Shown here: piece after piece, positions 41,340 to 58,902 of the stretch | Position numbering within the stretch: the first letter of the stretch is position 1 | Layout: the number at the start of each line of letters is the position of its first letter | Origin: an uncultured virus (IMG/VR IMGVR_UViG_3300024500_000029) | Taxonomy: Duplodnaviria > Heunggongvirae > Uroviricota > Caudoviricetes | Direction: 5' to 3' (one strand) | IMG/VR virus record: IMGVR_UViG_3300024500_000029 | DNA length: 64,000 bases | Position numbers and translations under genes: made by a program | Notes under the pieces: generated by a model | What the model was told of the DNA's origin: nothing | Seen by the model: the letters and a program-made list of their open reading frames with translations, nothing else | Database searches by the model: none

Positions 41340-41348
41340 ACGACAATT

Positions 41349-41471: not shown

Positions 41472-41529
41472 TTGTAATTAAATAGAATTCTACAAAACCC
41501 CAGGACTCGAAACCCTGGGGTTTTTGTTT
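41447..41529 (+). terminator. Attenuator: mutually exclusive antiterminator and intrinsic terminator
   Basis: 41450-41462 GGGGCTTTGTAGA pairs with 41489-41501 TCTACAAAACCCC (12/13). Terminator AAAACCCCAGG(41494-41504)/CCTGGGGTTTT(41514-41524) shares that arm. Confidence 0.8.
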
Positions 41530-41543
41530 ATATAAAGGGAGAA

Positions 41544-41708
41544 ATGACAACTGAACAGGAAATTCTGTCGTTTCAAAAAAAGTTAGAAGAACGTAATTTT
41601 GTTTTTAACGATCGATTGCTTGAACAATTGTTTAAAGAAAAAATGGAACGTTTGCGCAGGCAAACAGAACTTAATCAAGAATTACGTCGGCTAATAAAGA
41701 GGCGATAA
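41544..41708 (+). CDS. Small basic helical protein (54 aa), Arg-rich C-terminus
   Basis: AAGGGAG RBS; MTTEQEILSFQKKLEERNFVFNDRLLEQLFKEKMERLRRQTELNQELRRLIKRR. Confidence 0.6.
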   Translation: MTTEQEILSFQKKLEERNFVFNDRLLEQLFKEKMERLRRQTELNQELRRLIKRR

Positions 41709-41714
41709 AGCAGT

Positions 41715-41858
41715 AAAGTGCAATGTGGAACGAGGCCACTGCTCACTATAAAAAGCTAAACGGGCGGACAGTATATATGAAATCACGGCGAGAACGTTGA
41801 GAGTAAGACTACTGGTTGGGGTGTCGACCCCAACATAATGCGAGGTAACTCGCATTAT
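41715..41858 (+). ncRNA. Putative structured RNA downstream of the attenuator
   Basis: Successive stems GTGG/CCAC, CAGTA/TACTG, GTTGGGG/CCCCAAC and ATAATGCGAG/CTCGCATTAT; no convincing ORF. Confidence 0.5.
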
Positions 41859-41966
41859 TCTAAAGCACACTGGGCTAAGTACACGCCTATGCTCTGGACG
41901 CAGCCGGGCCGCCGTAAGGGGGCCTTTAAGGTGGACGGTTCGAATCCGTTAGTGTGTTTTAGAATA
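41856..41966 (+). ncRNA. Long-stem RNA cassette 1, contains a T-arm
   Basis: 17-bp closing stem TATTCTAAAGCACACTG/TAGTGTGTTTTAGAATA; internal GACGGTTCGAATCCGTT. Confidence 0.6.
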
Positions 41967-42020
41967 GTTCACCAAATATACTTTACAATTAGTGAGTTTG
42001 GCTATATACTAGAAAAATAC

Positions 42021-42115
42021 GGAGCGTTGGCCGAGTTGGTCGAAGGCACTTTCCTGCTAAGAAAGCATCTGGACAAAAATCTGGATCGTTGGTTCGAATC
42101 CAACACGCTCCGCCA
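42021..42115 (+). tRNA. tRNA-Ser(GCT)
   Basis: Cloverleaf with long variable arm, G73 and CCA. Confidence 0.92.
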
Positions 42116-42134
42116 AATTATTAAGTGATGATAT

Positions 42135-42755
42135 ATGGTAAATAAAAGTTTCTTATATAAGAATATATTTTCTCAAGAAGAAGTTAATCAAATTTTAAAT
42201 TTTTTTAAAAATCAGCCAATAGCTACAAAAAATTATTTAAATTTTGATAAAAACCTTGATTACCATATTGAAGATAGTTTTGCCCATACTTTTATTAAAC
42301 CAAAGATACAAGCTCTAATAGGTGATCATCATTTTGAAAACGGTAGCTACAAAGAATGTATCCAACCCTATACTATACATATAGACAATTATGCTTGGTG
42401 GGACGATACCTATACTTTTAAAGCAGAAGAAAACCATCAATGTTTTTTGTTGATACCTCTCGTTACTAGTCCTAAATTACGTACTGTAACATTTGATATA
42501 TTTTACGAAAAACGTTATGAAATGGGAGAACCAATGCCCAGTGAATGGTTAGGTGTTAAAAATACACTAGATCTAGAAGACTTTTCGCATTGTAAGCCTG
42601 AAACCCGAGAGCAAATACAGTATCTTCCAGTTGATAGAGATTTAGAATGGCAAGCAGGCGATGTTATTAGATGGCATAAAAACCAATTACATTGCAGCAC
42701 TGATTTTGCCAAATACGATTTAGTTAAAAAATTTGTATTATTGGGTCTAGCATAA
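42135..42755 (+). CDS. Hypothetical 2OG-Fe(II) oxygenase-like protein
   Basis: HID...QLHCS pattern. Confidence 0.5.
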   Translation: MVNKSFLYKNIFSQEEVNQILNFFKNQPIATKNYLNFDKNLDYHIEDSFAHTFIKPKIQALIGDHHFENGSYKECIQPYTIHIDNYAWWDDTYTFKAEENHQCFLLIPLVTSPKLRTVTFDIFYEKRYEMGEPMPSEWLGVKNTLDLEDFSHCKPETREQIQYLPVDRDLEWQAGDVIRWHKNQLHCSTDFAKYDLVKKFVLLGLA

Positions 42756-42764
42756 CAAAATAAA

Positions 42765-42854
42765 GGAAGTGTGGCAGAGTCCGGTTTAATGCACCTGTCT
42801 TGAAAACAGACGATCAGAAATGGTCCGTGGGTTCGAATCCTACCACTTCCGCCA
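42765..42854 (+). tRNA. tRNA-Ser(TGA)
   Basis: Cloverleaf with long variable arm and CCA. Confidence 0.92.
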
Positions 42855-42940
42855 GAATGTTCAAAAACTATCAATACCTATTGACTTAAATTAGAACTTA
42901 AAGTAATATGTGAACTTCATTAACTAAGTAGGAGTTCATA

Positions 42941-43198
42941 ATGAACATTAAACTTCGAGCAGCAGGTCGCACAGTGGGTATGATTGCCATAGCTACACTG
43001 GCTCCTCTGTTTGTAATGCTCTTGTTTAGGCTAGATAGTGATACACTTTTTGGTCTATTTACAATTTCCTTTTTCGCCTGGATGATCTGGGTAGTCTATT
43101 CAATTAATTTAACGCAGTTGGAATCGGAAGAAAAAATTAAAGAGATTCAGGAACGTCGTAGTACAATGATTTCTGGTATGATTAAAGATCCGGAGTAG
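42941..43198 (+). CDS. Two-TM membrane protein; stop codon lies inside tRNA-Trp
   Basis: TTGACT-17-TAATAT promoter at 42881, AGGAG RBS, two hydrophobic segments. Confidence 0.7.
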   Translation: MNIKLRAAGRTVGMIAIATLAPLFVMLLFRLDSDTLFGLFTISFFAWMIWVVYSINLTQLESEEKIKEIQERRSTMISGMIKDPE

Positions 43199-43262
43199 TA
43201 TAGTGGCAGTGCGGCGGTCTCCAAAACCGTTAGTGGGGGTTCGATTCCCTCCTCCGGAGCCA
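43189..43262 (+). tRNA. tRNA-Trp(CCA)
   Basis: Cloverleaf with CTCCAAA loop, G73 and CCA. Confidence 0.9.
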
Positions 43263-43285
43263 ACAATTTTTCTAGGAGTATAATT

Positions 43286-43465
43286 ATGAAGTATCTAAGA
43301 CTTGCAGTTCCTACTAGCATTTTTATTTTGTGTTTTCTTAATCTTGCCTTGGCTGTACATCAACACAATGATATGGCGATATGGGCTAATGTAACAGCCC
43401 TGTTTGGTTGGTTAATTGTCAGCGCAGACGAATACACCTATTTTAAGACTAGAGGGACATTGTGA
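43286..43465 (+). CDS. Small two-TM membrane protein (59 aa)
   Basis: AGGAG RBS; MKYLRLAVPTSIFILCFLNLALAVHQHNDMAIWANVTALFGWLIVSADEYTYFKTRGTL; shares GWLIV with the next ORF. Confidence 0.6.
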   Translation: MKYLRLAVPTSIFILCFLNLALAVHQHNDMAIWANVTALFGWLIVSADEYTYFKTRGTL

Positions 43466-43653
43466 AAGGCAGTATATTAAAAATAATTGTACCCGTGCTT
43501 TTAGTAATAATGGGGGCGATTGGTATAGGCACGTATTATGTGCAGGGGAATATGCCAGCAGTGTCTGGATATTTTAGTGCAACACTGGGTTGGCTTATTG
43601 TAGCTGGTTTCAATACAGTCAATTATATTAAAGAGAAAGAATATCTTGTTTAA
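43462..43653 (+). CDS. Small two-TM membrane protein, tandem paralogue
   Basis: GTGA overlap with the previous ORF; GWLIV motif. Confidence 0.6.
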   Translation: MKGSILKIIVPVLLVIMGAIGIGTYYVQGNMPAVSGYFSATLGWLIVAGFNTVNYIKEKEYLV

Positions 43654-43834
43654 ATTTCCTCTACGTGAATGGCCACATTATATTAAATGGAAATGGCAAC
43701 AGTTGTTTAGACGTAAAAATTTTATGTAATAAAGATAGTCCGGCCTGTAGTTGGGGTATAGCTAGAATTTACTAGTGAACGTATAGGACGCTATGCGCTA
43801 CGGACATCTAGGAGGTAATAAGCCTCCAACCTAT

Positions 43835-43912
43835 GCATCGGTACCAGAGAGGCCTAATGGCGGGGTCTGCAAAACCTTCGATTCGCTGGTTCGAATCCAG
43901 CCCGATGCTCCA
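43835..43912 (+). tRNA. tRNA-Cys(GCA)
   Basis: Cloverleaf with U73 and CCA. Confidence 0.9.
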
Positions 43913-43923
43913 GGATACTTTGA

Positions 43924-43996
43924 TGCGGGTTAGGGAAGAGGTCATCCCGTTAGGCTCATAACCTGAAGATCGTTGGTTCGAATCCAGCACCCGCTT
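43924..43996 (+). tRNA. tRNA-Met(CAT), initiator-like
   Basis: Unpaired 1:72 (T.T), GGCTCATAACC anticodon arm; no encoded CCA. Confidence 0.78.
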
Positions 43997-44028
43997 CAAA
44001 GTATCTTGCCAATCTTATAAATATTTTT

Positions 44029-44265
44029 ATGTTATGGGATTGGCATATCTTCCAGTACCGAGCGGAAATACCCTGGCCACAGATGCCCGATGCGCAACTG
44101 GACTGGGTCTGGGGGTTATACTCCGTGGAAAACTGGTTGACCTCTAATGTGGGCCCTAGATATTCTAACTGGGCTTTTGAACCCACTGATCAAATTTACA
44201 ATATAGGTGTCGCTTTCCGCTGGGAGCGAGATCAAGTTCTTTTCGTCCTTAAATGGACTCAGTAA
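44029..44265 (+). CDS. Hypothetical Trp-rich protein
   Basis: TATAAATA at 44016 directly upstream. Confidence 0.55.
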   Translation: MLWDWHIFQYRAEIPWPQMPDAQLDWVWGLYSVENWLTSNVGPRYSNWAFEPTDQIYNIGVAFRWERDQVLFVLKWTQ

Positions 44266-44275
44266 AATAATTTAT

Positions 44276-44368
44276 ACTTGGGTAGTGTAACGGTAGCACG
44301 ACGAGATTTATAACCTCGATACGCTAGATGGGCGGTTAGAGAGGGTTCGAATCCCTCCCCAAGTACCA
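44276..44368 (+). tRNA. Atypical tRNA-Ile(TAT) with long variable region
   Basis: Acceptor ACTTGGG/CCCAAGT-A-CCA, TTTATAA loop, ~22-nt variable region. Confidence 0.7.
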
Positions 44369-44375
44369 AAACAAT

Positions 44376-44451
44376 GCGGGCGTAGCTCAGTTGGTAGAGC
44401 GTTACCTTGCCAAGGTAAATGTCGTCAGTTCGAACCTGATCGCCCGCTCCA
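44376..44451 (+). tRNA. tRNA-Gly(GCC)
   Basis: Canonical cloverleaf with U73 and CCA. Confidence 0.95.
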
Positions 44452-44548
44452 GTTACTTTAAGGGGAAACAAAATGGGGCAATCGCAGTTTTTATTCTTGT
44501 AGTGTACTTACTGGTCCTAATCGATAATAATGTAAAATAAATATTTGG

Positions 44549-44770
44549 ATGATTTATGTTGACTATGATAACACTGGACTAGAGATTTATATGGTCACTA
44601 ATGATTACAACGAATGTTTAATTAGGACTACCAATCGCGGCCTAGCCTATTTTGTAGATAAACACAGTCGCGGTCTTAAACAGGGGATGTTTCTTGTAGT
44701 TGGAGGAGACCCTGGATCAAGAAAAGCTAGGCGCCCAATATTTCATCATATAAGGCGTTATTCCAGGTAG
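44549..44770 (+). CDS. Hypothetical protein
   Basis: ORF with TAAATA upstream. Confidence 0.5.
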   Translation: MIYVDYDNTGLEIYMVTNDYNECLIRTTNRGLAYFVDKHSRGLKQGMFLVVGGDPGSRKARRPIFHHIRRYSR

Positions 44771-44833
44771 TTGTTCAAAAAACTTGTGTTAAATGTATTT
44801 TCAAGTATAATGTAAGGCAGTTAGGAAAAAATT

Positions 44834-45103
44834 ATGGATATTACAGTAGCAACAAATTTTGTAACAAGTACTTTATTGATTAGCGTGGCCTGTATGATAG
44901 TAGCAGGTTGTGCAATTTTAATTAACAATATGATTCACAGATGGTGGAAGCCTTTAAGCTGGAGTATTGTGCCGCAGAGTATAAAGGATGTTATATCAGG
45001 AAACTTTGAACAACCTGCCAAGGAAGTTAAAGAACCTGTAAAACAAGAACCACACATTGAACATCAGGAAAATACAGTAACACAAGTACGAGTTAAAGAT
45101 TAA
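44834..45103 (+). CDS. Single-TM hypothetical protein
   Basis: AGGA RBS; hydrophobic N-terminal segment. Confidence 0.6.
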   Translation: MDITVATNFVTSTLLISVACMIVAGCAILINNMIHRWWKPLSWSIVPQSIKDVISGNFEQPAKEVKEPVKQEPHIEHQENTVTQVRVKD

Positions 45104-45109
45104 TTTCTA

Positions 45110-45185
45110 GCCGCTGTAGCTCAGTTGGTAGAGCGCCTGATTTGTAATCAGGATGTCGAGGGTTCGATTCCTTTCGGCGGCACCA
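45110..45185 (+). tRNA. tRNA-Thr(TGT)
   Basis: Cloverleaf with CCA. Confidence 0.94.
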
Positions 45186-45189
45186 AGAA

Positions 45190-45390
45190 CCTCGTAGTCC
45201 CATCTACGTTATTAACTGGGGGTAAATTGGCTTCACCATAATGCCAGGGCTCATACGATGATAGCCTCAAGGCCCGCTATATGGGCGACTTGAAAAATCG
45301 TAGGTGGGTACTACGCCTTGCCAGAAGTAAATGTAGAGGACGGAGTAACAGCCCAGTCTGGGGCTGATGAGGATCAGTAGCCAGACAACT
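45190..45390 (+). ncRNA. Putative ~200-nt structured RNA (family copy A)
   Basis: Long stem 45193-45208 with 45299-45315; motifs shared with 54350-54541; followed by a terminator-like hairpin at 45400-45434. Confidence 0.55.
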
Positions 45391-45461
45391 TATTTTTTTA
45401 ACCTAGGTACTATTGTAGTATGCTAGGTTTTTTTATGCGTTGACAACAAGGAGATCCTGTT

Positions 45462-45569
45462 ATGGATAGTGACAAGAAGGGTCTATTAAGATATGGTTGG
45501 ACATATCGCGATAGGCTTAAACGAGCAGCAATAATGTTCCAACTATATGGTATTACAATGGGTGCGTAA
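45462..45569 (+). CDS. Small ORF (35 aa) ending inside tRNA-Lys
   Basis: AAGGAG RBS; MDSDKKGLLRYGWTYRDRLKRAAIMFQLYGITMGA; TAA is tRNA nt 8-10. Confidence 0.45.
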   Translation: MDSDKKGLLRYGWTYRDRLKRAAIMFQLYGITMGA

Positions 45570-45636
45570 CTCAACTGGTTAGAGTAATCGGCTTTTAACC
45601 GATAAGTTGTGAGTTCGAGTCTCACCGCACCTACCA
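45560..45636 (+). tRNA. tRNA-Lys(TTT)
   Basis: Cloverleaf with CCA. Confidence 0.94.
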
Positions 45637-45722
45637 TATAAAAACACATTCGAATATAATAATAATAGCGCCCGGGGCTATGGAGAGTATACGACTGTCC
45701 AGGAATGTGTTTTTATATGGTA
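45632..45722 (+). ncRNA. Long-stem RNA cassette 2
   Basis: Perfect 20-bp inverted repeat TACCATATAAAAACACATTC/GAATGTGTTTTTATATGGTA. Confidence 0.65.
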
Positions 45723-46088
45723 CTAGTAAAAACTTATCTAGGGCCTAGCCCTATACACGGACTGGGAGTATTTGCAGATGAATTTGTCCCACAAGGAACT
45801 AAAATCTGGCAGCTAACACCAGGTCTAGATCTAGAGTGGTGTTATTTGGATTTTATTTCTCTACCACTCGCCGCACGAGAGTACATATTACATTGGGGAT
45901 ACAAAGATCCTGAATCTCAAATGTACAGATTAAGTTTTGACAATGACAGATTTATGAATTGGAGTCGAACTCCAAATGTCGTAGGTAATAGCAATGAAAC
46001 ATTTGCGGCTAGAGATATTGACAAAGGTGAAGAATTAACTTATCCATATTCCGAAGATTTATTAGGAGATCAAGATGCCAATGTATGA
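45717..46088 (+). CDS. SET-domain protein
   Basis: SPIHGLGVFA, RFMN.S..PN and AARDIDKGEELT.PY motifs; the usual His of NHS is Trp here. Confidence 0.8.
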   Translation: MVLVKTYLGPSPIHGLGVFADEFVPQGTKIWQLTPGLDLEWCYLDFISLPLAAREYILHWGYKDPESQMYRLSFDNDRFMNWSRTPNVVGNSNETFAARDIDKGEELTYPYSEDLLGDQDANV

Positions 46089-46224
46089 AACTACTGTGCG
46101 TACTCCTCAGGGAGAGACTAAAGATAGGGTGTATGCCAAGGATCTTCAAGAAGCTCGTCAACTATTTGAGCAGCGACACGGTCCTAGGAATGTACCTTAT
46201 ATTCCCAAAGTTATACCTAGTTAA
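46075..46224 (+). CDS. Small hypothetical protein (49 aa)
   Basis: AGGAG RBS; MPMYETTVRTPQGETKDRVYAKDLQEARQLFEQRHGPRNVPYIPKVIPS. Confidence 0.55.
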   Translation: MPMYETTVRTPQGETKDRVYAKDLQEARQLFEQRHGPRNVPYIPKVIPS

Positions 46225-46228
46225 TAAA

Positions 46229-46303
46229 GGAAGCGTAGCATAATGGTAGTGCAACACCTTCATACGGTGCGCTGTGGGGGTTCGACTCCCTCCGCTTCTA
46301 CCA
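46229..46303 (+). tRNA. tRNA-Met(CAT), elongator-like
   Basis: Cloverleaf with TTCATAC loop and CCA. Confidence 0.8.
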
Positions 46304-46322
46304 ATTTAACTAAAATAAATTT

Positions 46323-46640
46323 ATGAAAAAATGTCTTCATTGTGGTATTAAACATTCTCAAAAAATATCCACCTGCACAGTATGTAGAAACGGCCTACGC
46401 AGATATGGGATGACTAGATTGGATATGTTAGCTCTGCACAAAAAACAAAAAGAAAAATGTTATTTGTGTGGGGTAAAATTAGAAATGTTTGTGGGTGCCC
46501 GCGGCGGTATGATAGATCACTGCCACAAGACTGGGCAAGTAAGAAGTATCCTGTGCTGTAAATGCAACACCGCAGTGGGTGGAATAGAAACTCACAAAAA
46601 TGTCAAAAAGTTATTAGAATATGTAAAACTCGGGGAGTAG
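46323..46640 (+). CDS. Endonuclease VII-family protein; stop codon lies inside tRNA-Pro
   Basis: CYLC...IDHCHKTGQVRSILCCKCN motif. Confidence 0.8.
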   Translation: MKKCLHCGIKHSQKISTCTVCRNGLRRYGMTRLDMLALHKKQKEKCYLCGVKLEMFVGARGGMIDHCHKTGQVRSILCCKCNTAVGGIETHKNVKKLLEYVKLGE

Positions 46641-46708
46641 CTTAGTCTGGTTAAAGCGCCTGCTTTGGGAGCAGGAGATCGAGAGTTCGAATCCCTCTTC
46701 CCCGACCA
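46631..46708 (+). tRNA. tRNA-Pro(TGG)
   Basis: C1-G72, A73, CCA. Confidence 0.93.
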
Positions 46709-46709
46709 A

Positions 46710-47141
46710 TTATTTAGGTGCCCAGGCGTTACAGCAAGCTCTGGGTTTCACCTTAGTATCTAGATTGAAAAAATCAGGAATTTTTTGGTTTAAAGTTTCA
46801 AAAAACGTACAAGTAGTTCCTTCTAGTGCCACACAGTTTTCACATCTAACCTTGGCAACTACGTAGCCTGCATCCTTGGGTGTAATAGAGTCCATTATAA
46901 CCTGATTATCTGCAGGTACACCCTGTACGTAGAGACTACAACTGCCTTCAGCAACCACCTTGTAGTTTTTGCTAAACAGTGTGCATCTTTCACTGTCCGG
47001 CATAAAATGAGAACAGCTACTACACTGAGCAAAGTCCTTGATGTTATTCCTGGGTTCTAGGTAGATAAATGCGTCCCTACGAACTTTGTCAGAACTTTTT
47101 GTTGCTTCGGTAATTATGTTTATGTAGGATCTTAAATTCAT
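46710..47141 (-). CDS. Cys-rich protein with two HiPIP-like Cys clusters
   Basis: True start at MNLRSYINIITE; the upstream part of the listed ORF is antisense to tRNAs. CSSCSHF..C..CSLY and CENC..C..CCNAW. Confidence 0.55.
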   Translation of the reverse strand: MNLRSYINIITEATKSSDKVRRDAFIYLEPRNNIKDFAQCSSCSHFMPDSERCTLFSKNYKVVAEGSCSLYVQGVPADNQVIMDSITPKDAGYVVAKVRCENCVALEGTTCTFFETLNQKIPDFFNLDTKVKPRACCNAWAPK

Positions 47142-47158
47142 AGTAATATTTATTTTAT

Positions 47159-47233
47159 GCCTTCGTAGCTCAGTGGTAGAGCATCGTCTTGATAAGGCGA
47201 GGGTCGGTGGATCGTTCCCACCCGGAGGTACCA
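47159..47233 (+). tRNA. tRNA-Ile(GAT)
   Basis: Cloverleaf with atypical T-loop ATCGTTC; CCA. Confidence 0.87.
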
Positions 47234-47240
47234 GAACAAT

Positions 47241-47317
47241 TGGGGATTCGCCAAGTTGGTCAAGGCATCGGATTTTGATTCCGACATTCATAGGTTCGAA
47301 TCCTATATCCCCTACCA
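47241..47317 (+). tRNA. tRNA-Gln(TTG)
   Basis: Cloverleaf with CCA. Confidence 0.9.
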
Positions 47318-47324
47318 TAACAAT

Positions 47325-47400
47325 GGTGACTGTAGCATAACGGTAGTGCCACGGATTGTGATTCCGTACAGTGTGAGTTCGACTCTCATCAGTCACCCCA
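47325..47400 (+). tRNA. tRNA-His(GTG)
   Basis: G-1:C73 pair; CCA. Confidence 0.92.
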
Positions 47401-47406
47401 ATTTAA

Positions 47407-47482
47407 GCCGTCCAAGCTAACCTAGTGGAAGCGTCTGTCTGAAGAACAGAATGGCCTGGAGCGTAACCAGGGGTCGGCACCA
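47407..47482 (+). tRNA. tRNA-Phe(GAA)
   Basis: Cloverleaf with atypical T-loop AGCGTAA and A at position 8; CCA. Confidence 0.8.
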
Positions 47483-47486
47483 ATTA

Positions 47487-47561
47487 CGGTCCGTAGCTCA
47501 GCGGAAGAGTTCTGGTCTTCGAAACCAGCTGTCGGGAGTTCGAATCTCTCCGGACCGGCCA
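47487..47561 (+). tRNA. tRNA-Arg(TCG)
   Basis: Cloverleaf with CTTCGAA loop and CCA. Confidence 0.88.
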
Positions 47562-47597
47562 GCAAAATAAAATTAGTCTTGCTAGGTGATAAATACA

Positions 47598-47703
47598 AGT
47601 GCAACGCCAAGTTAATTGACGTCGGCAATTCAAACGACGCTTGACATATTGATGTCTTTACTGTATTGTTAATACAGAACGCCAGCCGTGAGCAGGATGC
47701 ACT
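47598..47703 (+). ncRNA. Putative structured 5' leader of the TauD/ACP/radical SAM operon
   Basis: Closing AGTGCA/TGCACT with inner hairpins CGTCG/CGACG, GACAT/ATGTC and CTGTATT/AATACAG; follows TAAATA. Confidence 0.5.
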
Positions 47704-47733
47704 GCGAGCACTACACCAACACAAGGACAAATA

Positions 47734-48777
47734 ATGAAAACTAGACCATTGAAAAATTATGGTGCTAGTGTTGGACTTGAAGCTTATGATATTGATTGGA
47801 ACTCTCAAGAAGAAATTCTTGAACTAGGTCGTCTAGCAGCCAGTCAGTGTGTAGTAGTTGTCAATGAACACATTAGCACCGAGCAACTTTATAAAACTAT
47901 GATTAACTGGGGCGATGTAAGTCATCCCATTATAACTGACTATGTAAGTCGTAAACTATTAACAGGCAGTCACTGGCGCGAGCTAACACTTAATCTGCGC
48001 TATATAACAAGTGAAGTTCCTGAACTTAAATCCGTAGCACTAGTAAGTTACCTTAAAAAAGAAAAAGATAGACCACGCGGTTTATTTTCCAATGGAGAAC
48101 TTGACTGGCACAGTGATCAATGCGCTATAGACGACGGACAACGAGTTATTGGTCTTCAAAGTATAAGTGATACAGCAAACAGCCAGACACAATTTTTATG
48201 CACACACGATGCCTACGAGTCATTAAGCTCGGATATGCGTAGTATGATCAAGGAATTGGTCTGTAAGCACCGTTGGTATGAGGGACTTATGGCACCTGGC
48301 TTAAACAGGGCTCAGTCAATGATGCTTAGATATAATATGGTACCCATTGACGGACTTGAAACAAACTTATATTCAGAAACTGCCAGCGGCTTAACTGGAA
48401 TAAAAATTCCTAGTCATACCTTTGATGGATTTGTGGGTATGAGCCGTGAAGAAAGTATTAAATTACTAGATGAAATTAAATCAGTAGTCTACAACGATCG
48501 TTACGTGCATACACAAGACTGGCAGGATGGGCAGATTGTGTTTATGGACCAAGAGATTACTCTACACAAACGACCAACTAATGTAAAAGACGGTGATCGT
48601 CGTACAATGGCACGTAGTATTACCTATGTTAACTATTTGTACCCTGACAGCGCATACGCCATAAGAAGATCAACTTACAAATATCAAGGTTCAGTTTATA
48701 CTGAAGAAGATTTTGTAAAATTAGTTGATCAAGACCGTCGCACACAATATGAACAAGAATTGGAGTTTGCAGAATGA
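47734..48777 (+). CDS. TauD/TfdA-family 2OG dioxygenase
   Basis: WHSD and WQDGQIVFMDQ...LHKR motifs. Confidence 0.85.
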   Translation: MKTRPLKNYGASVGLEAYDIDWNSQEEILELGRLAASQCVVVVNEHISTEQLYKTMINWGDVSHPIITDYVSRKLLTGSHWRELTLNLRYITSEVPELKSVALVSYLKKEKDRPRGLFSNGELDWHSDQCAIDDGQRVIGLQSISDTANSQTQFLCTHDAYESLSSDMRSMIKELVCKHRWYEGLMAPGLNRAQSMMLRYNMVPIDGLETNLYSETASGLTGIKIPSHTFDGFVGMSREESIKLLDEIKSVVYNDRYVHTQDWQDGQIVFMDQEITLHKRPTNVKDGDRRTMARSITYVNYLYPDSAYAIRRSTYKYQGSVYTEEDFVKLVDQDRRTQYEQELEFAE

Positions 48778-50526: not shown

Positions 50527-50547
50527 TGTTATAAACAAGAGGAAATT

Positions 50548-50793
50548 ATGAAAGAACAAATTAAGCAAGAAGTCAAACAAATCTTGGCCAAGCAGTTTGG
50601 TAAAACACTAGATGAAATTTCCGATGATCTGGATCTAGAAACTCTAGGCGCAGACAGTCTAGACACAGTGGAAATTGTAATGGAACTAGAACATCATTTT
50701 CAAATCGTTATTGAAGAAGATGAATACGAAGGCAAGTCTTCACTGACCAGCATTGTAGACCTTGTCTGCAAAAAGAAAAATCTTGAGTCCTAA
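50548..50793 (+). CDS. Acyl carrier protein
   Basis: LGADSLDTVEIVMELE phosphopantetheine attachment motif. Confidence 0.92.
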   Translation: MKEQIKQEVKQILAKQFGKTLDEISDDLDLETLGADSLDTVEIVMELEHHFQIVIEEDEYEGKSSLTSIVDLVCKKKNLES

Positions 50794-52303: not shown

Positions 52304-52317
52304 CAAAATTACAACAG

Positions 52318-52346
52318 TTGACATTAATGCACCAAATCGTTAAAAT
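52318..52346 (+). promoter_or_regulatory. Sigma70-type promoter
   Basis: TTGACA-17-TAAAAT followed by the leader AGCGGTATAGTAA...AAGGAGC. Confidence 0.75.
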
Positions 52347-52376
52347 AGCGGTATAGTAAACGATAAGGAGCAAGCA

Positions 52377-52619
52377 ATGTTAACAACTAAACAAGCACGT
52401 GAAATTGTTAATAAACAAATTAAATATTTTCAGAGCTGGACGGATAAAAGTCGCGCTAGTGATGGTGAAGCGATGCGTAATGTTTGTTTTCACGTGGGCT
52501 ACCTTACTAAAGAAAGTGATATTGCTAAAATTAAAAATAGTCTAGAGCTTGCTGGGCATACTGGCAAGACTAGGTTGATGGGTGGTTATCTGCGTTTAAC
52601 CAACTTGGAAATAAATTAA
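52377..52619 (+). CDS. Hypothetical early protein
   Basis: Promoter plus AAGGAG RBS. Confidence 0.65.
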   Translation: MLTTKQAREIVNKQIKYFQSWTDKSRASDGEAMRNVCFHVGYLTKESDIAKIKNSLELAGHTGKTRLMGGYLRLTNLEIN

Positions 52620-52631
52620 TTAAAAAAGTAG

Positions 52632-52660
52632 TTGACAGTAATTGCACTAGATGATATAAT
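52632..52660 (+). promoter_or_regulatory. Consensus sigma70 promoter for the ncRNA island
   Basis: TTGACA-17-TATAAT. Confidence 0.85.
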
Positions 52661-52727
52661 ATAAGACTGCACTAAACGATGCAGCCCAAGTAGTAGAAAA
52701 AAGTTCTATAACAATTAGTAAAACAAT

Positions 52728-52811
52728 GCCCTGGTGGTGGAATGGTAGACACGCTAGTCTTAGGAACTAGTATCGCAAGGTGTGGGAGTTCGAGTCTCCC
52801 CTGGGGCACCA
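52728..52811 (+). tRNA. tRNA-Leu(TAG)
   Basis: Cloverleaf with variable arm and CCA. Confidence 0.93.
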
Positions 52812-53036
52812 TATTAAAATATATTAGGTTACCTAGCCAGTAGGGGGCCTAGAAGAGGATAACCACTTGACGGAGTGGCTCTTGCTAGGTCTCACGAAAC
52901 CTTGAGATAATATCAGGAGGACGCTGGAACAACTAGGAACGTAATGTGTGACACAGACAAATCCGTGGACGGCACGGTTGGGCAGAGTTCAAAGGCTGCG
53001 ATCTCTGTGAAGCATCCTAATATATTTTAATATGGT
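52808..53036 (+). ncRNA. Long-stem RNA cassette 3 (~190-nt cargo)
   Basis: Perfect 21-bp inverted repeat ACCATATTAAAATATATTAGG/CCTAATATATTTTAATATGGT. Confidence 0.65.
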
Positions 53037-53197
53037 ACAAGACTGTTCATATAACACTGCAATGGGATATGACAGGCTGCGTAAGTGTATTGGCTGGCAC
53101 AGAAGCCCCAGTAGCGGAGAGTTGAAGCACTTGCAGGTGTGGATGAGTTCCGTGACCGGGCGTCTAGGTTGGGTTCGAATCCCATCGCATTTGTTTG

Positions 53198-53337
53198 CAC
53201 CATATTGAAGCACATTTCTGTCATTGCCGTGCCAGCTTCACGGTGAGTACAAGAGTACGGAAGTAGCTACCCGACAGGTTGTACAAAGTTACAAGTGGGT
53301 TAATGACAGCCCCTTGGGAGTGTGTTTCAATATGGTG
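53198..53337 (+). ncRNA. Long-stem RNA cassette 4
   Basis: 21-bp stem with 3 G.U pairs, CACCATATTGAAGCACATTTC/GGAGTGTGTTTCAATATGGTG; inner CTGTCATT/AATGACAG stem. Confidence 0.65.
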
Positions 53338-53374
53338 GTTGACATTAAAAGAATTTAGCTGTAATATAGATACT

Positions 53375-54258
53375 TAGGGAGTTTAATCTCTTGTTAGGCG
53401 GTTCGCCGTCTAACTAAGGATAAGTGGCGTGAGTCACCCAAAGCAGAATCCTCCTACAGGACTGCGCCAGAGATGGTCCAGTTAAACAAGCCTGCTCACT
53501 ACCGCGAGGTAGCGATCACTGATAAGACCGGTGGTTGTAACAATGAAGCTGGTGTAGTGGAAAGAACTTGTATCGACTAGCCCGCAAGGGAACTAGGGTG
53601 CAAGGAAAGTAACAGGTGGTGCTGACTTCACTACAAAACCAACCAGTTAGTTGGTATGAGAAAGGGTAGTGCATTTGTCCAAGGTTTCGCAGCCAAGGGC
53701 TTGTGTGCAGTATGAATGGTACTTGGGGCTGCTGTGAGGCGTCACAAGAATCGTGAAATACTACTGAGTAGCCGGCAGGCGAAAGGTACGTGGTGTGTTG
53801 TATCGTGTATTCCAAAAGAGTATGCGGCAACTGGAGCAGCACATCATAGTAGGTTGATATAGCTCATTGGTAGAGCAACAGTCCTTTTAAACTGTAGGCA
53901 GTTGGTTCAAATCCAACTATCATTAAACAAAAACGCAAAGACTGCTCCGGTTGTATGTGAAAAGCATCTAACACTTAGGGCGTAAGCTAACTAAGTTCAG
54001 TCTAACCCGCAAGGTGAAACTGATTTGTACTAGAAGATTCGTAGCTCGCAAGGCTTAATGGACCGCAAGTTCAACGGGTAATAAGGTACAGAGTAGCATA
54101 CAATGACAAGACTACTGCCTGTCTTTAAACGGCGATGCTGCAAGCAGACTGGATCACATAGCGATATGGATCTTGTGGATGTCGTGGAGAAGATTGGCTC
54201 GCAAGGCTGACTATAATACCCGAGGTGCTTGTAGTTAAGATGTAATCTCAGTCTTAAC
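53375..54258 (+). ncRNA. Giant structured RNA, GOLLD-like (~885 nt), with embedded tRNA-like module
   Basis: Own promoter TTGACA(53339)-17-TAATAT; no credible ORF; many GNRA (GCAA/GCGA/GTAA) hairpins; long-range GGAGCAG/CTGCTCC pairing; terminal GTTAAGA...TCTTAAC hairpin; tRNA-array context. Family name from recall, not a model hit. Confidence 0.7.
53853..53925 (+). other. tRNA-Lys-like module inside the giant RNA
   Basis: Canonical D and T arms; 8-nt anticodon loop CCTTTTAA; weak acceptor stem; no CCA. Confidence 0.7.
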
Positions 54259-54349
54259 ACTTTCTAAAACACATTGTAGTGGATTTCACAAGTATGAGTC
54301 GCATTCTAAAGAGTGCCCTTGAGATTGGATATAGTGTGTTTCAGAAAGT
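54259..54349 (+). ncRNA. Long-stem RNA cassette 5
   Basis: ACTTTCTAAAACACATTGTA/TATAGTGTGTTTCAGAAAGT, 20 bp with one mismatch. Confidence 0.6.
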
Positions 54350-54541
54350 CAAGAATCCGGTTACTACTTTCCTAAAAGTAGCGTATGGCACACGACAAGG
54401 CCCGGTGGCTAGGGCACCGTTAGCGTTACTAGAGACAGACGACCTAGCAGCGTGGACACTTCGTCGGCCGTCTGCCAAACAGTGTTCGGACAGGGTAACA
54501 ACTCCAGGATAGGGGCGACCGTGGAAAAGCGTGGCCTAACC
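54350..54541 (+). ncRNA. Putative ~190-nt structured RNA (family copy B)
   Basis: Shares CAAGGCCCG, TGCCA and GGACRGRGTAACARC...GGGGC...GTRGCC with 45190-45390. Confidence 0.55.
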
Positions 54542-54543
54542 AA

Positions 54544-54702
54544 TATATTAGCAAGTGTTATCGATGAAACATTGGGTATCGTAAACTGATCATTTACTAT
54601 GCGGGCCTAACTGGCGTGGAACAGGTCCTGACATAACCAGCCATACGCTCTGGAACGGAAGCACCGGACTCCTAAATTGGCACGATAGCACTTACTAATA
54701 TA
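54544..54702 (+). ncRNA. Long-stem RNA cassette 6 (stem motif in inverted polarity)
   Basis: TATATTAGCAAGTGTTATCG/CGATAGCACTTACTAATATA, 20 bp with one mismatch. Confidence 0.55.
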
Positions 54703-54714
54703 ATACTAATATAA

Positions 54715-54789
54715 GGTTCCATAGTATATCGGTTAGTACACCGCCCTGTCACGGCAGAAGGAGGGGTTCGACTCCCCTTGGGACCGCCA
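54715..54789 (+). tRNA. tRNA-Asp(GTC)
   Basis: Cloverleaf with G73 and CCA. Confidence 0.92.
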
Positions 54790-54864
54790 AGTTTCTCTAC
54801 ACTACATCTAAGCCTTGATAGGTAGGGGAAGGCAGGTGGCTTAGGCTTGCCGAGAGTTTTTATT

Positions 54865-54941
54865 GCACCGTTAGACATCTGGTTGAGGTCACCACCCTTT
54901 CAAGGTGGCTAGAGCGGGTTCGAATCCCCTACGGTGTACCA
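54865..54941 (+). tRNA. tRNA-Glu(TTC)
   Basis: Cloverleaf with CCA. Confidence 0.88.
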
Positions 54942-55052
54942 AGATGCACAGTGTCGCTTTACGCTGTGGCAGGACGGCCTCTGTATCCTAGGACTCAAGC
55001 CTCTCAGACTGCAACTAGAGTTCTCGCAAAAGAACATAGCAAGATTTAGATT

Positions 55053-55139
55053 GGGTGCTTAGTCCCGTAATGGTATCGGGGGCAGACTGTAAATCTGTTG
55101 TCTTTGGCCTTCTCTGTTCGAATCGGAGAGCACCCACCA
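55053..55139 (+). tRNA. tRNA-Tyr(GTA)
   Basis: Cloverleaf with variable arm, A73 and CCA. Confidence 0.88.
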
Positions 55140-55155
55140 AGTTAAGAAAGTAGAT

Positions 55156-55359
55156 ATGTATAAAGTATATTGGACCTACGGTGATGAAACCTACGGTCAA
55201 GAATTTGAAGATATGACAGAAGCACTTAATTATTGTCAGCATCTTAGAAGTACTGGTAGAAAGTATGTTACTATGTGCAGCGAGCTTGCTGATATGGTTG
55301 GCGAGTTTGGTGTAACGGAAACTGGACCTGGTTATGATTGGAAAAAACGTAGAGATTAA
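55156..55359 (+). CDS. Hypothetical protein
   Basis: ORF fills the gap between two tRNAs; YDWKKRR C-terminus. Confidence 0.65.
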   Translation: MYKVYWTYGDETYGQEFEDMTEALNYCQHLRSTGRKYVTMCSELADMVGEFGVTETGPGYDWKKRRD

Positions 55360-55360
55360 T

Positions 55361-55438
55361 CCGTCCTTAGCTCAGTAGGATTAGAGCATCAGGCTACGAA
55401 CTTGAAGGTCGGGGGTTCGACTCCCTCAGGACGGTCCA
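55361..55438 (+). tRNA. tRNA-Arg(ACG)
   Basis: Cloverleaf with CTACGAA loop and CCA. Confidence 0.92.
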
Positions 55439-55449
55439 AAAATAATTAA

Positions 55450-55695
55450 ATGGATTTAATAAAAAACATTTCAGAGAAAGCCAAGGAGTCAGTGCCCAAG
55501 GGAGTACTGGCTCCTGACCTTTGGATAGAACATTATAATAAAATATTTGCTAGGTTAGTTGTACAGGAATGTCTAGACATTTTAAATGAACACATTCGGG
55601 AAGACAGTAAAGAAGAGAGGGATATATACTTAAAAAGTTTTAGACAGGATCTAAAACAACATTTTGGTCTAGGGAGAAATCAAGACAATGAATAG
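55450..55695 (+). CDS. Hypothetical protein
   Basis: FARLVVQEC motif, shared with the next ORF. Confidence 0.6.
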   Translation: MDLIKNISEKAKESVPKGVLAPDLWIEHYNKIFARLVVQECLDILNEHIREDSKEERDIYLKSFRQDLKQHFGLGRNQDNE

Positions 55696-55984
55696 CAATC
55701 TATTGGACGACCTTATGTATCAAGCAGGTATGACTGCTCAGGGTTGCTGGGACAATCTTGACGATTATGATAAAGAGGCCATACTGAGATTGGCTAAATT
55801 AATAGTGCAAGAGTGTGTAAAATCTTGCGGTAGCCAGGCAGACAAGGCTAACATCTTAAAAACTTTTGGCCTGCCTGTGGAATCCAATGTTAAATATATT
55901 AGTCCTGAAGCATCAGGTAGTGTGGACTCTCAATATAGAAGAAGATATAACCTAGCACCCACTCAGGGAGTAAATAATGACTAA
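55688..55984 (+). CDS. Hypothetical protein, paralogous motif
   Basis: LAKLIVQEC motif; GGAG RBS. Confidence 0.6.
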   Translation: MNSNLLDDLMYQAGMTAQGCWDNLDDYDKEAILRLAKLIVQECVKSCGSQADKANILKTFGLPVESNVKYISPEASGSVDSQYRRRYNLAPTQGVNND

Positions 55985-56125
55985 GAAAAAAGTCAAAACT
56001 GATACTGAACTAGATAAAAAATGTAATGCAGCAATAAAAAGAGTTAATAAACATATAGATACACTTGTTGCACGACATTTAAAAGAGATGGGACTTGTCG
56101 TAACTGATACTAAAAAAATAATTTA

Positions 56126-57178
56126 ATGAAACCCAGTCATTTTTATTTCGACGATAAAATATTAGAACGCGAACAATTACTTTTTAAACAGGCAAGATAT
56201 CTAGGACACGAACTATCTGTCAATAACTATCGCACACTTCCACAGGACAATAGTGGTAGAGTGTTAGTTAAAAACAACAACGGTATAGAGTGTATAGAAA
56301 ATGTCTGCCGCCACCGCCAAGCAGTAATGCTAACAGGCAGTGGAGAAACATCAAACATTATTTGTCCATTACACGGCTGGACCTACAATCTAGAAGGCGA
56401 ACTTGTTGGCGCCCCACATTTTGATCCTTGCCCTAATAGACCACTAAGAAAATTTAGCACACAGAGCTGGAACGGTCTATTTTTTGAATCAGGTAAGTTT
56501 AACATTGTTCGAGATCTTATTGGTATGAGAGCTGGTAAGTATTTTGATTTTAACAATTACCAGTACCATAGCACTCAGGAACATCATTGTGATTACAACT
56601 GGAAGACCTTTATAGAAGTCTACCTAGACGATTATCACGTGGTACCTTTCCATCCTGGCCTTGGTAATTTTGTAGATTGTAATAAACTAGACTGGCAGTT
56701 TGGTGACTGGTATAGTGTGCAGACTGTGGGAGTTCATAATGAATTGCGCACTCCCGGTACACCAGTTTATCGTCGCTGGCACGATGTATTAATGAATTAT
56801 CGTAAGGGACAAATACCTGAATTTGGGGCAATATGGCTGACCATCTATCCTAATGTAATGGTGGAATGGTATCCTGAAGTTTTAGTAATTTCTAGTCTGT
56901 GGCCGGAAACACCACAGCGCACAAAAAATATTGTTGAATTTTATTATCCCGAGGATATAGCTTTATTTGAACCTGAGTTTGTTCAAGCTCATCAGGCTGC
57001 CTATATGGAAACCTGTTATGAAGATGATGAAATAGCAAGGCGTATGGATCAGGGTAGATGTCATCTTAATAACAATAATTATAGTGATTACGGACCTGTA
57101 CACAATCCTATGGAACTAGGTCTAGAATATTTTTACAAGTATTACAACAATTATGTTTTTGGTTTATTTGGCGAATAA
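56126..57178 (+). CDS. Rieske non-haem iron oxygenase alpha subunit
   Basis: CRH...CPLHGW Rieske ligands; NWKTFIEVYLDDYH...H mononuclear Fe site; C-terminal EDD. Confidence 0.9.
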   Translation: MKPSHFYFDDKILEREQLLFKQARYLGHELSVNNYRTLPQDNSGRVLVKNNNGIECIENVCRHRQAVMLTGSGETSNIICPLHGWTYNLEGELVGAPHFDPCPNRPLRKFSTQSWNGLFFESGKFNIVRDLIGMRAGKYFDFNNYQYHSTQEHHCDYNWKTFIEVYLDDYHVVPFHPGLGNFVDCNKLDWQFGDWYSVQTVGVHNELRTPGTPVYRRWHDVLMNYRKGQIPEFGAIWLTIYPNVMVEWYPEVLVISSLWPETPQRTKNIVEFYYPEDIALFEPEFVQAHQAAYMETCYEDDEIARRMDQGRCHLNNNNYSDYGPVHNPMELGLEYFYKYYNNYVFGLFGE

Positions 57179-57218
57179 CAATTCGACTTAATAAACTTTT
57201 AGTAGTAAAATGTTATAT

Positions 57219-57294
57219 GGGAAGTTAGCTCAGTTGGTAGAGCGTCTGCTTTACACGCAGAATGTCGGCGGTTCGATCCCGTCACTTCCTACCA
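57219..57294 (+). tRNA. tRNA-Val(TAC)
   Basis: Cloverleaf with CCA. Confidence 0.95.
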
Positions 57295-57301
57295 ATTTTA
57301 T

Positions 57302-57377
57302 TCCAGCGTAGCTCAGTGGTAGTAGCAGTTGACTGTTAATCAATTGGTCGTTGGTTCGATCCCAACCGCTGGAGCCA
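57302..57377 (+). tRNA. tRNA-Asn(GTT)
   Basis: Cloverleaf with G73 and CCA. Confidence 0.94.
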
Positions 57378-57396
57378 ATTTTATAAGGGGAAAGTA

Positions 57397-57606
57397 ATGC
57401 TAATAACGGAAGCTCAGGGTTATAAACTCTATTGTGAAGTCACGCCAGTGGATTTTCCCCCGGCACTTTTTAGAGTGCATATTTTTACTAAGTTCGACTG
57501 GGCCAAGGACCCCGAGGCCATACAGACCAAGATGGAACTGTTTTTTGATGAGGCTGAACTGGAAGCTTTTAGAACCGCTTTGAGCGTACCACGCCTAGAT
57601 CAGTAA
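57397..57606 (+). CDS. Hypothetical protein
   Basis: AAGGGG RBS. Confidence 0.55.
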   Translation: MLITEAQGYKLYCEVTPVDFPPALFRVHIFTKFDWAKDPEAIQTKMELFFDEAELEAFRTALSVPRLDQ

Positions 57607-57625
57607 TTCCCTGTTAAATACAGGT

Positions 57626-57874
57626 ATGAAAGACCTGTTAAAGAATTTACCTCAAATATTAAGTGCTCTTCCCGAAATAGTTAAGTATTTAAAATATATA
57701 CCTATTTTAATGTTACTAGCGGGCATAGGCTATGGGGTATTGTATTATATGGACAATCACAAAGATCCCTACAAATGTGTCAATAACCACGTTTTTGAAC
57801 AGTTAAGAATAGACAGTGATGTCTATGTGTTCAAGGGCGGTACTTGCATTGATGCCAAGGACCTAGAACAATGA
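57626..57874 (+). CDS. Single-TM hypothetical protein
   Basis: TAAATA upstream; hydrophobic segment then a Cys pair. Confidence 0.6.
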   Translation: MKDLLKNLPQILSALPEIVKYLKYIPILMLLAGIGYGVLYYMDNHKDPYKCVNNHVFEQLRIDSDVYVFKGGTCIDAKDLEQ

Positions 57875-58155
57875 TAGTTTACCGTGTGCCTAGTTCTTTA
57901 CTAACTGACTATGCTCAAGTTGGCCAACATCAACAAGTGTTAGCCAAGTATAAAAGACAAGATGCTGAATTACAAAATTACAACGAACTTGTCAAGCTTA
58001 TTTCTATGCAGGAAGGTCTTAGGTTATTAAGAAATTACAATTATATGAAGGACACTGAATTTTTAACTCAGTATGCCTATGCCGAAAGCATCAAGGAACA
58101 ACGACTAGTACAAAGAGCTGCTAGTGTTGGTCTCTATATAGACAGATACATATAA
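57871..58155 (+). CDS. Hypothetical protein
   Basis: ATGA overlap with the previous ORF. Confidence 0.55.
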   Translation: MIVYRVPSSLLTDYAQVGQHQQVLAKYKRQDAELQNYNELVKLISMQEGLRLLRNYNYMKDTEFLTQYAYAESIKEQRLVQRAASVGLYIDRYI

Positions 58156-58262
58156 TATTATCGCGTGTGAGGAAGTCGCCTTTACTGACGGCGTACAGTA
58201 GGATAAATTGTCAGTAGTCTACAGACCCCGTCTTAGCAGTCTCGGACGATAAACGAGACTGC

Positions 58263-58328
58263 ATATTGAAGCACATTGCGATGCCGTTCCGCGGCGGCGA
58301 CCACAACGAGAGTAGTGTGTTTCAATAT
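58263..58328 (+). ncRNA. Long-stem RNA cassette 7
   Basis: ATATTGAAGCACATTGC/GTAGTGTGTTTCAATAT (17 bp, 3 G.U); arms nearly identical to cassette 4. Confidence 0.6.
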
Positions 58329-58864: not shown

Positions 58865-58902
58865 AAAAATATTTATAGTGAGTTGTTATAGTAAAAGAAA
58901 AT

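Follow-up and report, generated by a model that had tools for sequence, protein, structure and literature searches.

Cassettes closed by a conserved, CCA-anchored RNA helix in the tRNA arrays of uncultured jumbo phages: a putative processing signal around unrelated inserts

Arrays of transfer RNA (tRNA) genes in phages are usually read as codon-usage or anti-defence devices, and to our knowledge the RNAs that lie between phage tRNAs have gone unexplained since the discovery of the species 1 and species 2 RNAs of phage T4. Stems processed by ribonuclease III (RNase III) are known from the stalks of ribosomal RNA operons and from the early RNA sites of phage T7. Here we describe a family of hairpin cassettes from the tRNA array of an uncultured virus (IMG/VR record IMGVR_UViG_3300024500_000029), of which a stretch of 64,000 nucleotides, hereafter the window, was analysed. 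The window holds seven long-stem hairpins between 41856 and 58328, numbered here as cassettes 1 to 7 and all lying on the + strand. Phage tRNA clusters are already known to contain small stable RNAs and stems for processing; what is new here is one strongly conserved, CCA-anchored closing helix around dozens of unrelated inserts, which is absent from Rfam, from isolated phages and from the literature searched. The reading that we favour, with rather less than even confidence, is that the shared helix is an RNA-level signal for processing and end formation through a putative cut of the RNase III type.

Several described systems resemble these cassettes in part. Like RNase III stems, the cassettes form an intramolecular helix, about two turns long, that brackets a stable RNA within a polycistronic precursor and would have to be cut to free the neighbours. 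Unlike those stems, which have no strongly conserved sequence in the accessible text of PMC3867540, the cassettes keep 17 bp across phages whose terminases are 59-67% identical, and cleavage here is putative. Species 1 (rnaC) and species 2 (rnaD) of T4 are also small non-tRNA RNAs within a phage tRNA cluster, a likeness of kind only; in T4 rnaC, as in cassette 1, a T-arm-like GGUUCGAAUCC lies shortly ahead of the 3' strand of the stem that closes the RNA. In rnaC this stem is, however, predicted to be short and interrupted, T4 has neither a shared 17-20-bp helix nor a family of exchangeable inserts, and no sequence or stem homology between the cassettes and T4 species 1 or 2 appeared. Integron attC sites and the hairpins of miniature inverted-repeat transposable elements (MITEs) share with the cassettes conserved imperfect inverted repeats around a variable centre and strand-specific folding, and the RNA hairpins of the Neisseria Correia elements, which are MITEs, have been reported as RNase III substrates. 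The cassettes differ from both in that no integrase occurs among the ORFs (open reading frames) scanned, the inserts are unconserved (60 groups), and the cassettes point the same way as the tRNA genes and are represented in RNA libraries. In bacterial Y RNAs (YrlA, Ro/Rsr), as in the cassettes, a conserved stem made of the two RNA ends carries a variable, partly tRNA-like module. Finally, the PeSL elements of T4-like myoviruses are short conserved stem-loop motifs that act as exchange points between unrelated sequences, and in the accessible text of PMC4122927 they flank ORFs and join a terminator to an early promoter; the cassette arms, by contrast, belong to one hairpin around a non-coding insert, and 7 of 72 cassettes have a promoter-like site in the 70 nt past the right arm.

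The earlier note on this DNA, made from the letters alone, had claimed inverted repeats at seven places, and all seven were recovered there by a listing of inverted repeats, a G.U-aware search and a check by hand. The listing gives four stems, at 52808-52828/53016-53036 (21 nt, 100% complementary), 45632-45651/45703-45722 (20 nt, 100%), 53198-53214/53321-53337 (17 nt, 94%) and 41856-41871/41951-41966 (16 nt, 94%). The G.U-aware search adds 54259-54349 (20 bp) and 58263-58328 (17 bp), and the stem of 54544-54702, traced by hand, has 20 positions, of which one is a C.A mismatch and another a wobble. Between 38000 and 64000 the + strand has seven uninterrupted stems, G.U allowed, that reach 16 bp or more around loops of 20-250 nt, against a mean of 0.78 (maximum 3) in 60 dinucleotide shuffles; five of them had been listed in the earlier note, the other two lie at 41120 and 55402, and the stems at 54259 and 54544, each with a mismatch, are uncounted. 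Four stems in the same interval and strand reach at least 20 bp, against a shuffle mean of 0.05 (maximum 1). The minus strand has just the two perfectly complementary ones, and the plus strand of the structural-gene half (1-38000) has one. The core AARCACAYT occurs 13 times where 4.2 are expected, a count reached in 0 of 100 shuffles, and the RNA fold z-scores of five cassettes run from -3.5 to -6.4. Chance or AT-rich palindromes as the origin of the stems are ruled out by the excess over shuffles and by the core count. The further claim that most stems share their arms holds for five of the seven (41856, 45632, 53198, 54259 and 58263, with the core AARCACAYT/AGUGUGUUU) and fails for two: the 52808 stem has only the outer ACCAUAUUAAAA in common with the family, and the 54544 stem is its own.

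These five stems belong to a family of 72 distinct cassettes, collected from the IMG/VR neighbours of the window's Rieske gene, from a scan of IMG/VR with a left-arm 14-mer (at least 122 stretches), from 16 stretches (10 to 40 kb per contig) of eight related contigs and from a few small contigs of metagenome-assembled genomes (MAGs). Seventy-six candidate hairpins were considered, four were discarded for arms unlike the family, and repeats of the window's own phage (L001-L003, L008 and L132) were excluded; the resulting alignment, A1, draws its 72 cassettes from 46 sources. A member had to show the core and 10 or more of the 11 outer pairs; 47 of the 72 contain the 14-mer, and the other 25 are independent of the 14-mer scan. 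The family sits in tRNA arrays of uncultured freshwater jumbo myoviruses that form a clade: in the contigs with a terminase match (G005, G006, G008, G010 and G011) the protein is 59-67% identical to that of the window, which places the phages that carry the family in one clade of jumbo phages. Arrays of 21-32 tRNAs hold one to five cassettes, on the tRNA strand, and the stretch fetched from G011 holds four cassettes with seven tRNAs. The family is thus a defined, testable element, with a helix conserved above the level of tRNA, common to many uncultured giant phages and closing around dozens of unrelated inserts.

In A1 the consensus is a helix of about 17 bp, ACCAUAUUGAAGCACAUU paired with AGUGUGUUUCAAUAUGGU, which is extended by 2-5 more covarying pairs. 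The median uninterrupted G.U-aware stem is 19 bp and the longest 23; 56 of the 72 reach at least 16 bp, and the other 16 are broken by a mismatch. That the stems are under selection as + strand (tRNA-sense) RNA structure, as had been proposed from the window, is upheld in the family by the asymmetry between G.U and A.C pairs and by covariation. Among 64 cassettes oriented solely by the strand of neighbouring tRNAs, the helix positions that are not Watson-Crick comprise 104 G.U, 19 A.C and 28 other, and two wobble columns of A1 (13/166 and 18/161) hold 80 G.U and 0 A.C. Such an asymmetry in the tRNA sense is not expected of a site in duplex DNA. Pairing covers 94.5% of 1439 cells in A1, against 86.6% in shuffles, none of 500 reaching the observed value, and falls to 50% or less when the partner is slid by 1-3 columns; both sides change at 12 of 20 pairs, with a covariation score of 0.249 against 0.108 in shuffles. 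The double changes are the informative part of the pairing evidence: column 9 has U-A/A-U, column 10 has G-C/A-U/C-G/U-A, and columns 20 and 21 have A-U/C-G/G-C/U-A. Eleven columns are invariant and 13 nearly so, some wobbles are fixed (G.U in 38/72, U.G in 56/72), and in a second subfamily, marked by AUAUAAAAACACA, an A.C pair is retained and recurs, 10 times at one column. The helix is selected as a structure in the tRNA-sense transcript.

These results bear directly on a reading in which the arms act purely at the level of DNA, either as terminal inverted repeats of a miniature mobile element or as recombination sites of the attC or PeSL type, with the RNA hairpin as a by-product. Such elements would account for 60 insert groups on one stem, for the same insert in different contexts and for a copy number that varies, with three cassettes upstream of tRNA-Lys in G002 and one in G003; PeSLs offer a model, being exchange points between unrelated sequences in T4-like phages in the accessible text of PMC4122927. 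The sequence alone is also compatible with a folded single strand of DNA, and PMC5737381, as far as its accessible text goes, argues likewise. Against this stand the strict strand asymmetry at the two wobble columns, covariation that keeps pairing, the lack of any integrase or transposase among 38 window ORFs scanned, and inserts that are not conserved as they are in a MITE. We regard a purely DNA-level function as very improbable.

The helix is tied in position to tRNA ends. Its left arm opens with NCCA, which in 20 of the 72 cassettes is the 3' end of a tRNA called by ARAGORN (Lys 7, Leu 4, Tyr 3, Ile 2, Glu 2, Gly 1, Thr 1); an upstream T-loop motif is found in 27/72, mostly at exactly 23 nt, and in 17/72 the next tRNA begins at most 15 nt past the right arm, such cassettes exactly filling the spacer between two tRNAs. 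ACCA opens three stems of the window, two of them burying tRNA 3' ends, just as the earlier note had stated: tRNA-Lys(UUU) (45560-45636, + strand) contributes its discriminator and CCA as the opening bases of the left arm of cassette 2, and the ACCA of tRNA-Leu(UAG) (52728-52811, + strand) begins the stem of cassette 3. The third, at 53198, opens with CACCA and has no called tRNA, with a T-loop motif 29 nt upstream. In the predicted minimum-free-energy fold of tRNA-Lys with cassette 2 the cloverleaf is kept, the 19-bp helix abuts it with no unpaired base, and the discriminator and CCA are paired. A CCA paired in a helix that is stacked on the acceptor stem would be out of reach for single-strand nucleases, and where a helix of 17-23 bp locks the CCA end, a double-strand-specific cut would be needed to free it.

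This, combined with the RNA-level selection on the helix, leads us to the following scheme. A double-strand-specific endonuclease, with host RNase III as the leading candidate, would cut both strands of the helix and so part the upstream tRNA or tRNA-like RNA, whose CCA is locked in the helix, from the downstream RNA. Exonucleases would trim back to the CCA, and the insert would be freed as a small RNA capped by the remaining stem, while the near-identical arms would supply about 20 bp of homology for the exchange of inserts between cassettes. We place the host enzyme first because the phages themselves encode none: the RNase III domain (PF14622) was found in 0 of 24 phage contigs, four of which are at least 90% complete, in a search that found its control in 8 of 14 genomes, and a double-stranded RNA-binding domain (dsRBD) was likewise found in none of the 24. 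RNase III reportedly releases a tRNA from the metY-nusA-infB transcript, a precedent that we count for processing here. If true, the processing reading would show how many small RNAs are built from one precursor, and the helix would be a compact natural scaffold for the expression of structured RNA.

The length of the helix, with its median of 19 bp and maximum of 23, fits the substrate rule for RNase III of about two A-form turns and at least about 11 bp from the cut; in the accessible text of PMC3867540 the idealised Escherichia coli substrate has 22 bp and about 11 bp are needed from the site. The E. coli consensus that the earlier note had offered as support is unusable as a test. According to the same text (PMC3867540), sequence is not conserved in the distal box and is degenerate in the proximal boxes, and newly mapped E. 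coli sites do not match the consensus in the accessible part of PMC5371410, so that a consensus match says nothing for cleavage. More specific preferences have been described for E. coli in vivo, where a G-C or C-G pair separating the two cuts and an A-U or U-A pair at D/D' are favoured (PMC6212723, accessible text). With a putative cut centred on A1 columns 15/16 (A-U and C-G, both 72/72), which would fall in the invariant CACA/UGUG core, the pairs three positions out are column 12 (A-U, 72/72) and column 19 (U-A, 66/72). This register comes from a post-hoc hand check made without the figure that defines the positions; it agrees with the text of PMC6212723, neighbouring registers are worse, and the rules are those of E. 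coli, which may not hold for the host.

Several observations weigh against processing by RNase III as the role of the helix. Members were picked by core and pairing, which inflates both the percentage paired and the arm identity, and CACA/UGUG is invariant in 72/72 but the core was itself a requirement of the collection. The unit of tRNA-Lys and cassette occurs with unrelated inserts in seven contigs, the window's and six others, with a mean pairwise identity of 0.71 in tRNA-Lys, 0.86 and 0.83 in the left and right arms and 0.43 in the insert; arms more conserved than the tRNA, together with the G.U and A.C pairs that are kept, imply a sequence-specific partner, as RNase III is not known to need either. 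Several cassettes follow promoter-like sites by about 12-15 nt and for that reason look like stand-alone small-RNA genes. The coupling to tRNA maturation that had been proposed would apply to a minority, the 20 of 72 that overlap a called tRNA 3' end, and does not stand as a general rule, given that some cassettes have an upstream promoter-like site and that arrays of 21-32 tRNAs hold only one to five; at this ratio the helix is no general tRNA-maturation device. One metatranscriptome contig (52800-53512) bridges cassettes 3 and 4 uncut. The cassettes were also considered as general maturation signals for GOLLD RNA and rejected in that role: GOLLD is found in 2 of 24 contigs, and that of the near-complete G006 has no flanking cassettes.

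The implied partner is central to a rival explanation that we hold to be somewhat unlikely, in which the conserved helix is a sequence-specific handle for a phage or host protein or ribonucleoprotein, comparable to the Ro-binding stem of Y RNAs or the CRISPR repeat hairpin. The inserts would then be the working parts that are presented, stabilised or localised, and any cleavage would be secondary. Arms conserved above the adjoining tRNA, the invariant and nearly invariant columns, the fixed G.U and U.G wobbles and the recurrent A.C of the second subfamily all fit such a handle, as do 60 unrelated insert groups on one stem, the promoter-like site that some cassettes have of their own, and the GTTCRA motif of 12/75 inserts, which gives them a tRNA-like character as in YrlA and T4 rnaC. 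No candidate partner has emerged, with TROVE and dsRBD each at 0 of 24 contigs, and the Rfam model for YrlA (RF02553) reaches at best 22.5-26.7 bits against a gathering score of 69 in the window and 20 further loci, with none of these matches on a cassette. An RNase H-like gene (PF04308) of the array was rejected as an obligatory partner, as it occurs in only 10 of 24 contigs and is absent from the near-complete G006 and G008. Orthologous tRNA-Lys cassettes with unrelated inserts would also be odd if the inserts were working parts. If true, a specific handle would mean that its RNA-binding partner remains to be found.

The promoter-like sites also bear on a reading of the hairpins as 3'-end or boundary elements (protective terminal hairpins, unusual terminators, or insulators before the next promoter or tRNA) that are not cleaved internally. 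In the window one such site follows cassette 1 (41982-42010), another follows cassette 4 (53339-53367), and a third (54677-54704) overlaps cassette 6 in its right arm; a TTGACC box comes right after the right arm in L017 and L020, and cassette 7 lies where + strand transcription meets a minus-strand ORF. Across the family, however, a promoter-like site within 70 nt downstream is found in only 7/72, no U-tract follows the stems of the window, and a contig from an RNA library reads through cassette 4 into GOLLD. The hairpin would still have to go wherever the CCA of a tRNA is inside the helix. On balance a boundary function appears improbable to us, and processing remains the reading that we prefer.

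The inserts themselves, about 25-145 nt in length, are unrelated to one another, in line with what had been noticed in the window: the 72 of the family fall into 60 BLAST groups, of which 52 are singletons. One insert occurs in two settings, a stand-alone cassette of the first subfamily (L017:19832) and a tRNA-Lys cassette of the second (L264:6897), which indicates that inserts move between slots. By analogy with PeSLs, which do so for ORFs in T4-like phages, the identical arms, with their roughly 20 bp of homology, very likely also mediate this exchange. GTTCRA is found in 12/75 inserts against 2.2 in shuffles (maximum 7 in 500), and seven of these copies are found 2-9 nt ahead of the 3' arm, the place at which a T-arm would meet an acceptor-like stem; cassette 1 is such a case. 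As for antisense guides against the phage's own genes, no insert has complementarity within the window beyond the T-loop. It seems to us distinctly unlikely that the helix is the docking handle of a natural display-and-exchange system, with at least 60 interchangeable structured inserts shuffled between slots via the arms. If true, this would amount to an integron-like or CRISPR-repeat-like organisation of non-coding RNA modules in giant phages, some of them mimicking tRNA.

Searches outside the clade returned little that resembles the family. Among isolated phages, no cassette was found in 50,697 records, and BLAST with cassette 4 and with a four-cassette stretch returned only tRNA or chance matches; a match in Serratia phage WSPA was discarded as a cassette, lying inside a coding sequence. 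No tRNA array lies near the GOLLD locus of Sinorhizobium phage Phosso, a locus outside the search for cassettes. Bacterial genomes yielded 118 stretches with the right-arm 16-mer, a number not above our rough estimate of chance; hairpins occur in only three small MAG contigs, and no host is identified from these genomes. An Rfam search, which the earlier note had suggested for each insert, gave no known family at any cassette: Rfam 15 has no match at those of the window with E up to 5, and at 20 further loci, with E up to 0.5, the sole overlap with a cassette is a meaningless hit to a miRNA precursor (E 0.18). Searches of the literature found no description of an element like the closing-stem cassettes.

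The cassette region is represented in RNA libraries, a point that we count for the processing reading. Seventeen runs hold 42-75% of the sampled words of 52600-55000, and contigs from four runs together cover all of 41000-60000; as assembled sequences, these contigs show presence and some uncut molecules and cannot show ends or rank levels. Word depth in them is hundreds to thousands over the GOLLD region and about 3-17 over coding genes, a depth of contigs that is no measure of level. Contigs also break near cassette 7 (58270/58296), and neither these breaks nor the differences in depth were taken as evidence. Contigs of the runs X3 and X5 end at 54531-54533 and continue into apparent sequencing-adapter sequence, a hint of an abundant RNA that ends 11-13 nt upstream of cassette 6.

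Individually, the seven cassettes differ in arms, insert and setting. Cassette 1 (41852-41970, z -4.3) has the family helix with a divergent outer part, and its 75-nt insert contains a GNRA-capped hairpin and the T-arm-like GGUUCGAAUCC, 7 nt before the 3' arm. Cassette 2 (45632-45722, z -6.4) belongs to the AUAUAAAAACACA subfamily and has a perfect 20-bp helix around 51 nt. A SET-domain gene (45705-46088) has its likely start, an ATG at 45717, within the right arm of this cassette, and the helix would therefore mask the start until opened or cut. Cassette 3 (52808-53036) has a perfect 21-bp stem, arms whose inner half is unlike the family, and a 187-nt insert without any BLAST likeness found in related contigs; a look-alike of its stem, with a 192-nt insert, is present in G005. 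Between it and cassette 4, and immediately upstream of the latter, lies a tRNA-like element (53037-53201, + strand) with a T-loop motif and the ending GCACCA, which is called neither by ARAGORN nor by the Rfam tRNA model. A similar T-arm-plus-NCCA piece lies ahead of a cassette in L017 (19897-19999).

Cassette 4 (53198-53337, z -5.6) has canonical arms with 23 G.U-aware pairs and an insert of 94 nt. Cassette 5 (54259-54349, z -4.0) is a family member with a divergent outer part, one A.C and a 51-nt insert, and it begins 5 nt past the end of the GOLLD match. Cassette 6 (54544-54702) has its own 20-bp stem (one C.A, one wobble), and a hairpin in G005 and G009, with a different, compensating stem, has an insert that matches part of the cassette 6 insert at 84-89% identity. 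Cassette 7 (58263-58328, z -3.5), with canonical arms and 17 bp, closes around 32 nt, an insert kept in two other contigs with a compensatory change in the hairpin of the insert.

By the Pfam matches of its proteins, the window derives from a T4-like myovirus, with a gp15-like tail sheath stabiliser, tail sheath, large terminase, gp32-like and RecA/UvsX-like proteins, as well as numerous 2-oxoglutarate (2OG), TauD and radical-SAM enzymes. The closest isolated phages by terminase are the Pseudomonas jumbo phage PA5oct and its kin, at 55.6% identity. An 88-kb IMG/VR contig (G001; CheckV completeness 25%), identical to the window across the 2.4 kb compared, was used as a proxy for it. The array comprises 29 tRNA genes on the + strand from 39.6 kb to the end of the window. 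A perfect sigma-70 consensus promoter (12/12, extended -10) at 52632-52660, upstream of tRNA-Leu, suggests transcription of the array by the RNA polymerase of the host with a sigma factor like that of E. coli.

Other RNA elements share the array with the cassettes. The 3' domain of GOLLD (Rfam RF02032, 214 bits) occupies 53790-54254 on the + strand, between cassettes 4 and 5, and holds a tRNA-like insert at 53853-53925 that ARAGORN reports with an undetermined anticodon; the promoter-like site at 53339-53367 also belongs to this GOLLD locus (53339-54254). Three more GC-rich non-coding stretches (45186-45420, 54350-54543 and 54942-55360) have homologues 74-97% identical in related contigs and no Rfam match; with GOLLD and several conserved, uncatalogued RNAs in such arrays, the locus is a rich source of new RNA biology. 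tRNA-Met(CAU) (43924-43997) sits in a leader-trailer helix on the + strand (43911-44008; 20-nt inverted repeat, 90%), a stem missing from the earlier list and unlike the family in sequence, which lengthens the acceptor stem by about 13 bp. This tRNA has U-U at pair 1:72 and seems to be without an encoded CCA. The RNase H-like gene of the PF04308 family mentioned above lies in the array at 63296-63769, and its homologues in G002, G003, G005 and G009, the four contigs in which gene and array could both be placed, are inside the tRNA array or within a few kb of it. A tRNA with the anticodon CUA at 63776-63850, labelled Pyl by ARAGORN, is a possible amber suppressor, and a similar call is found in the array of G006.

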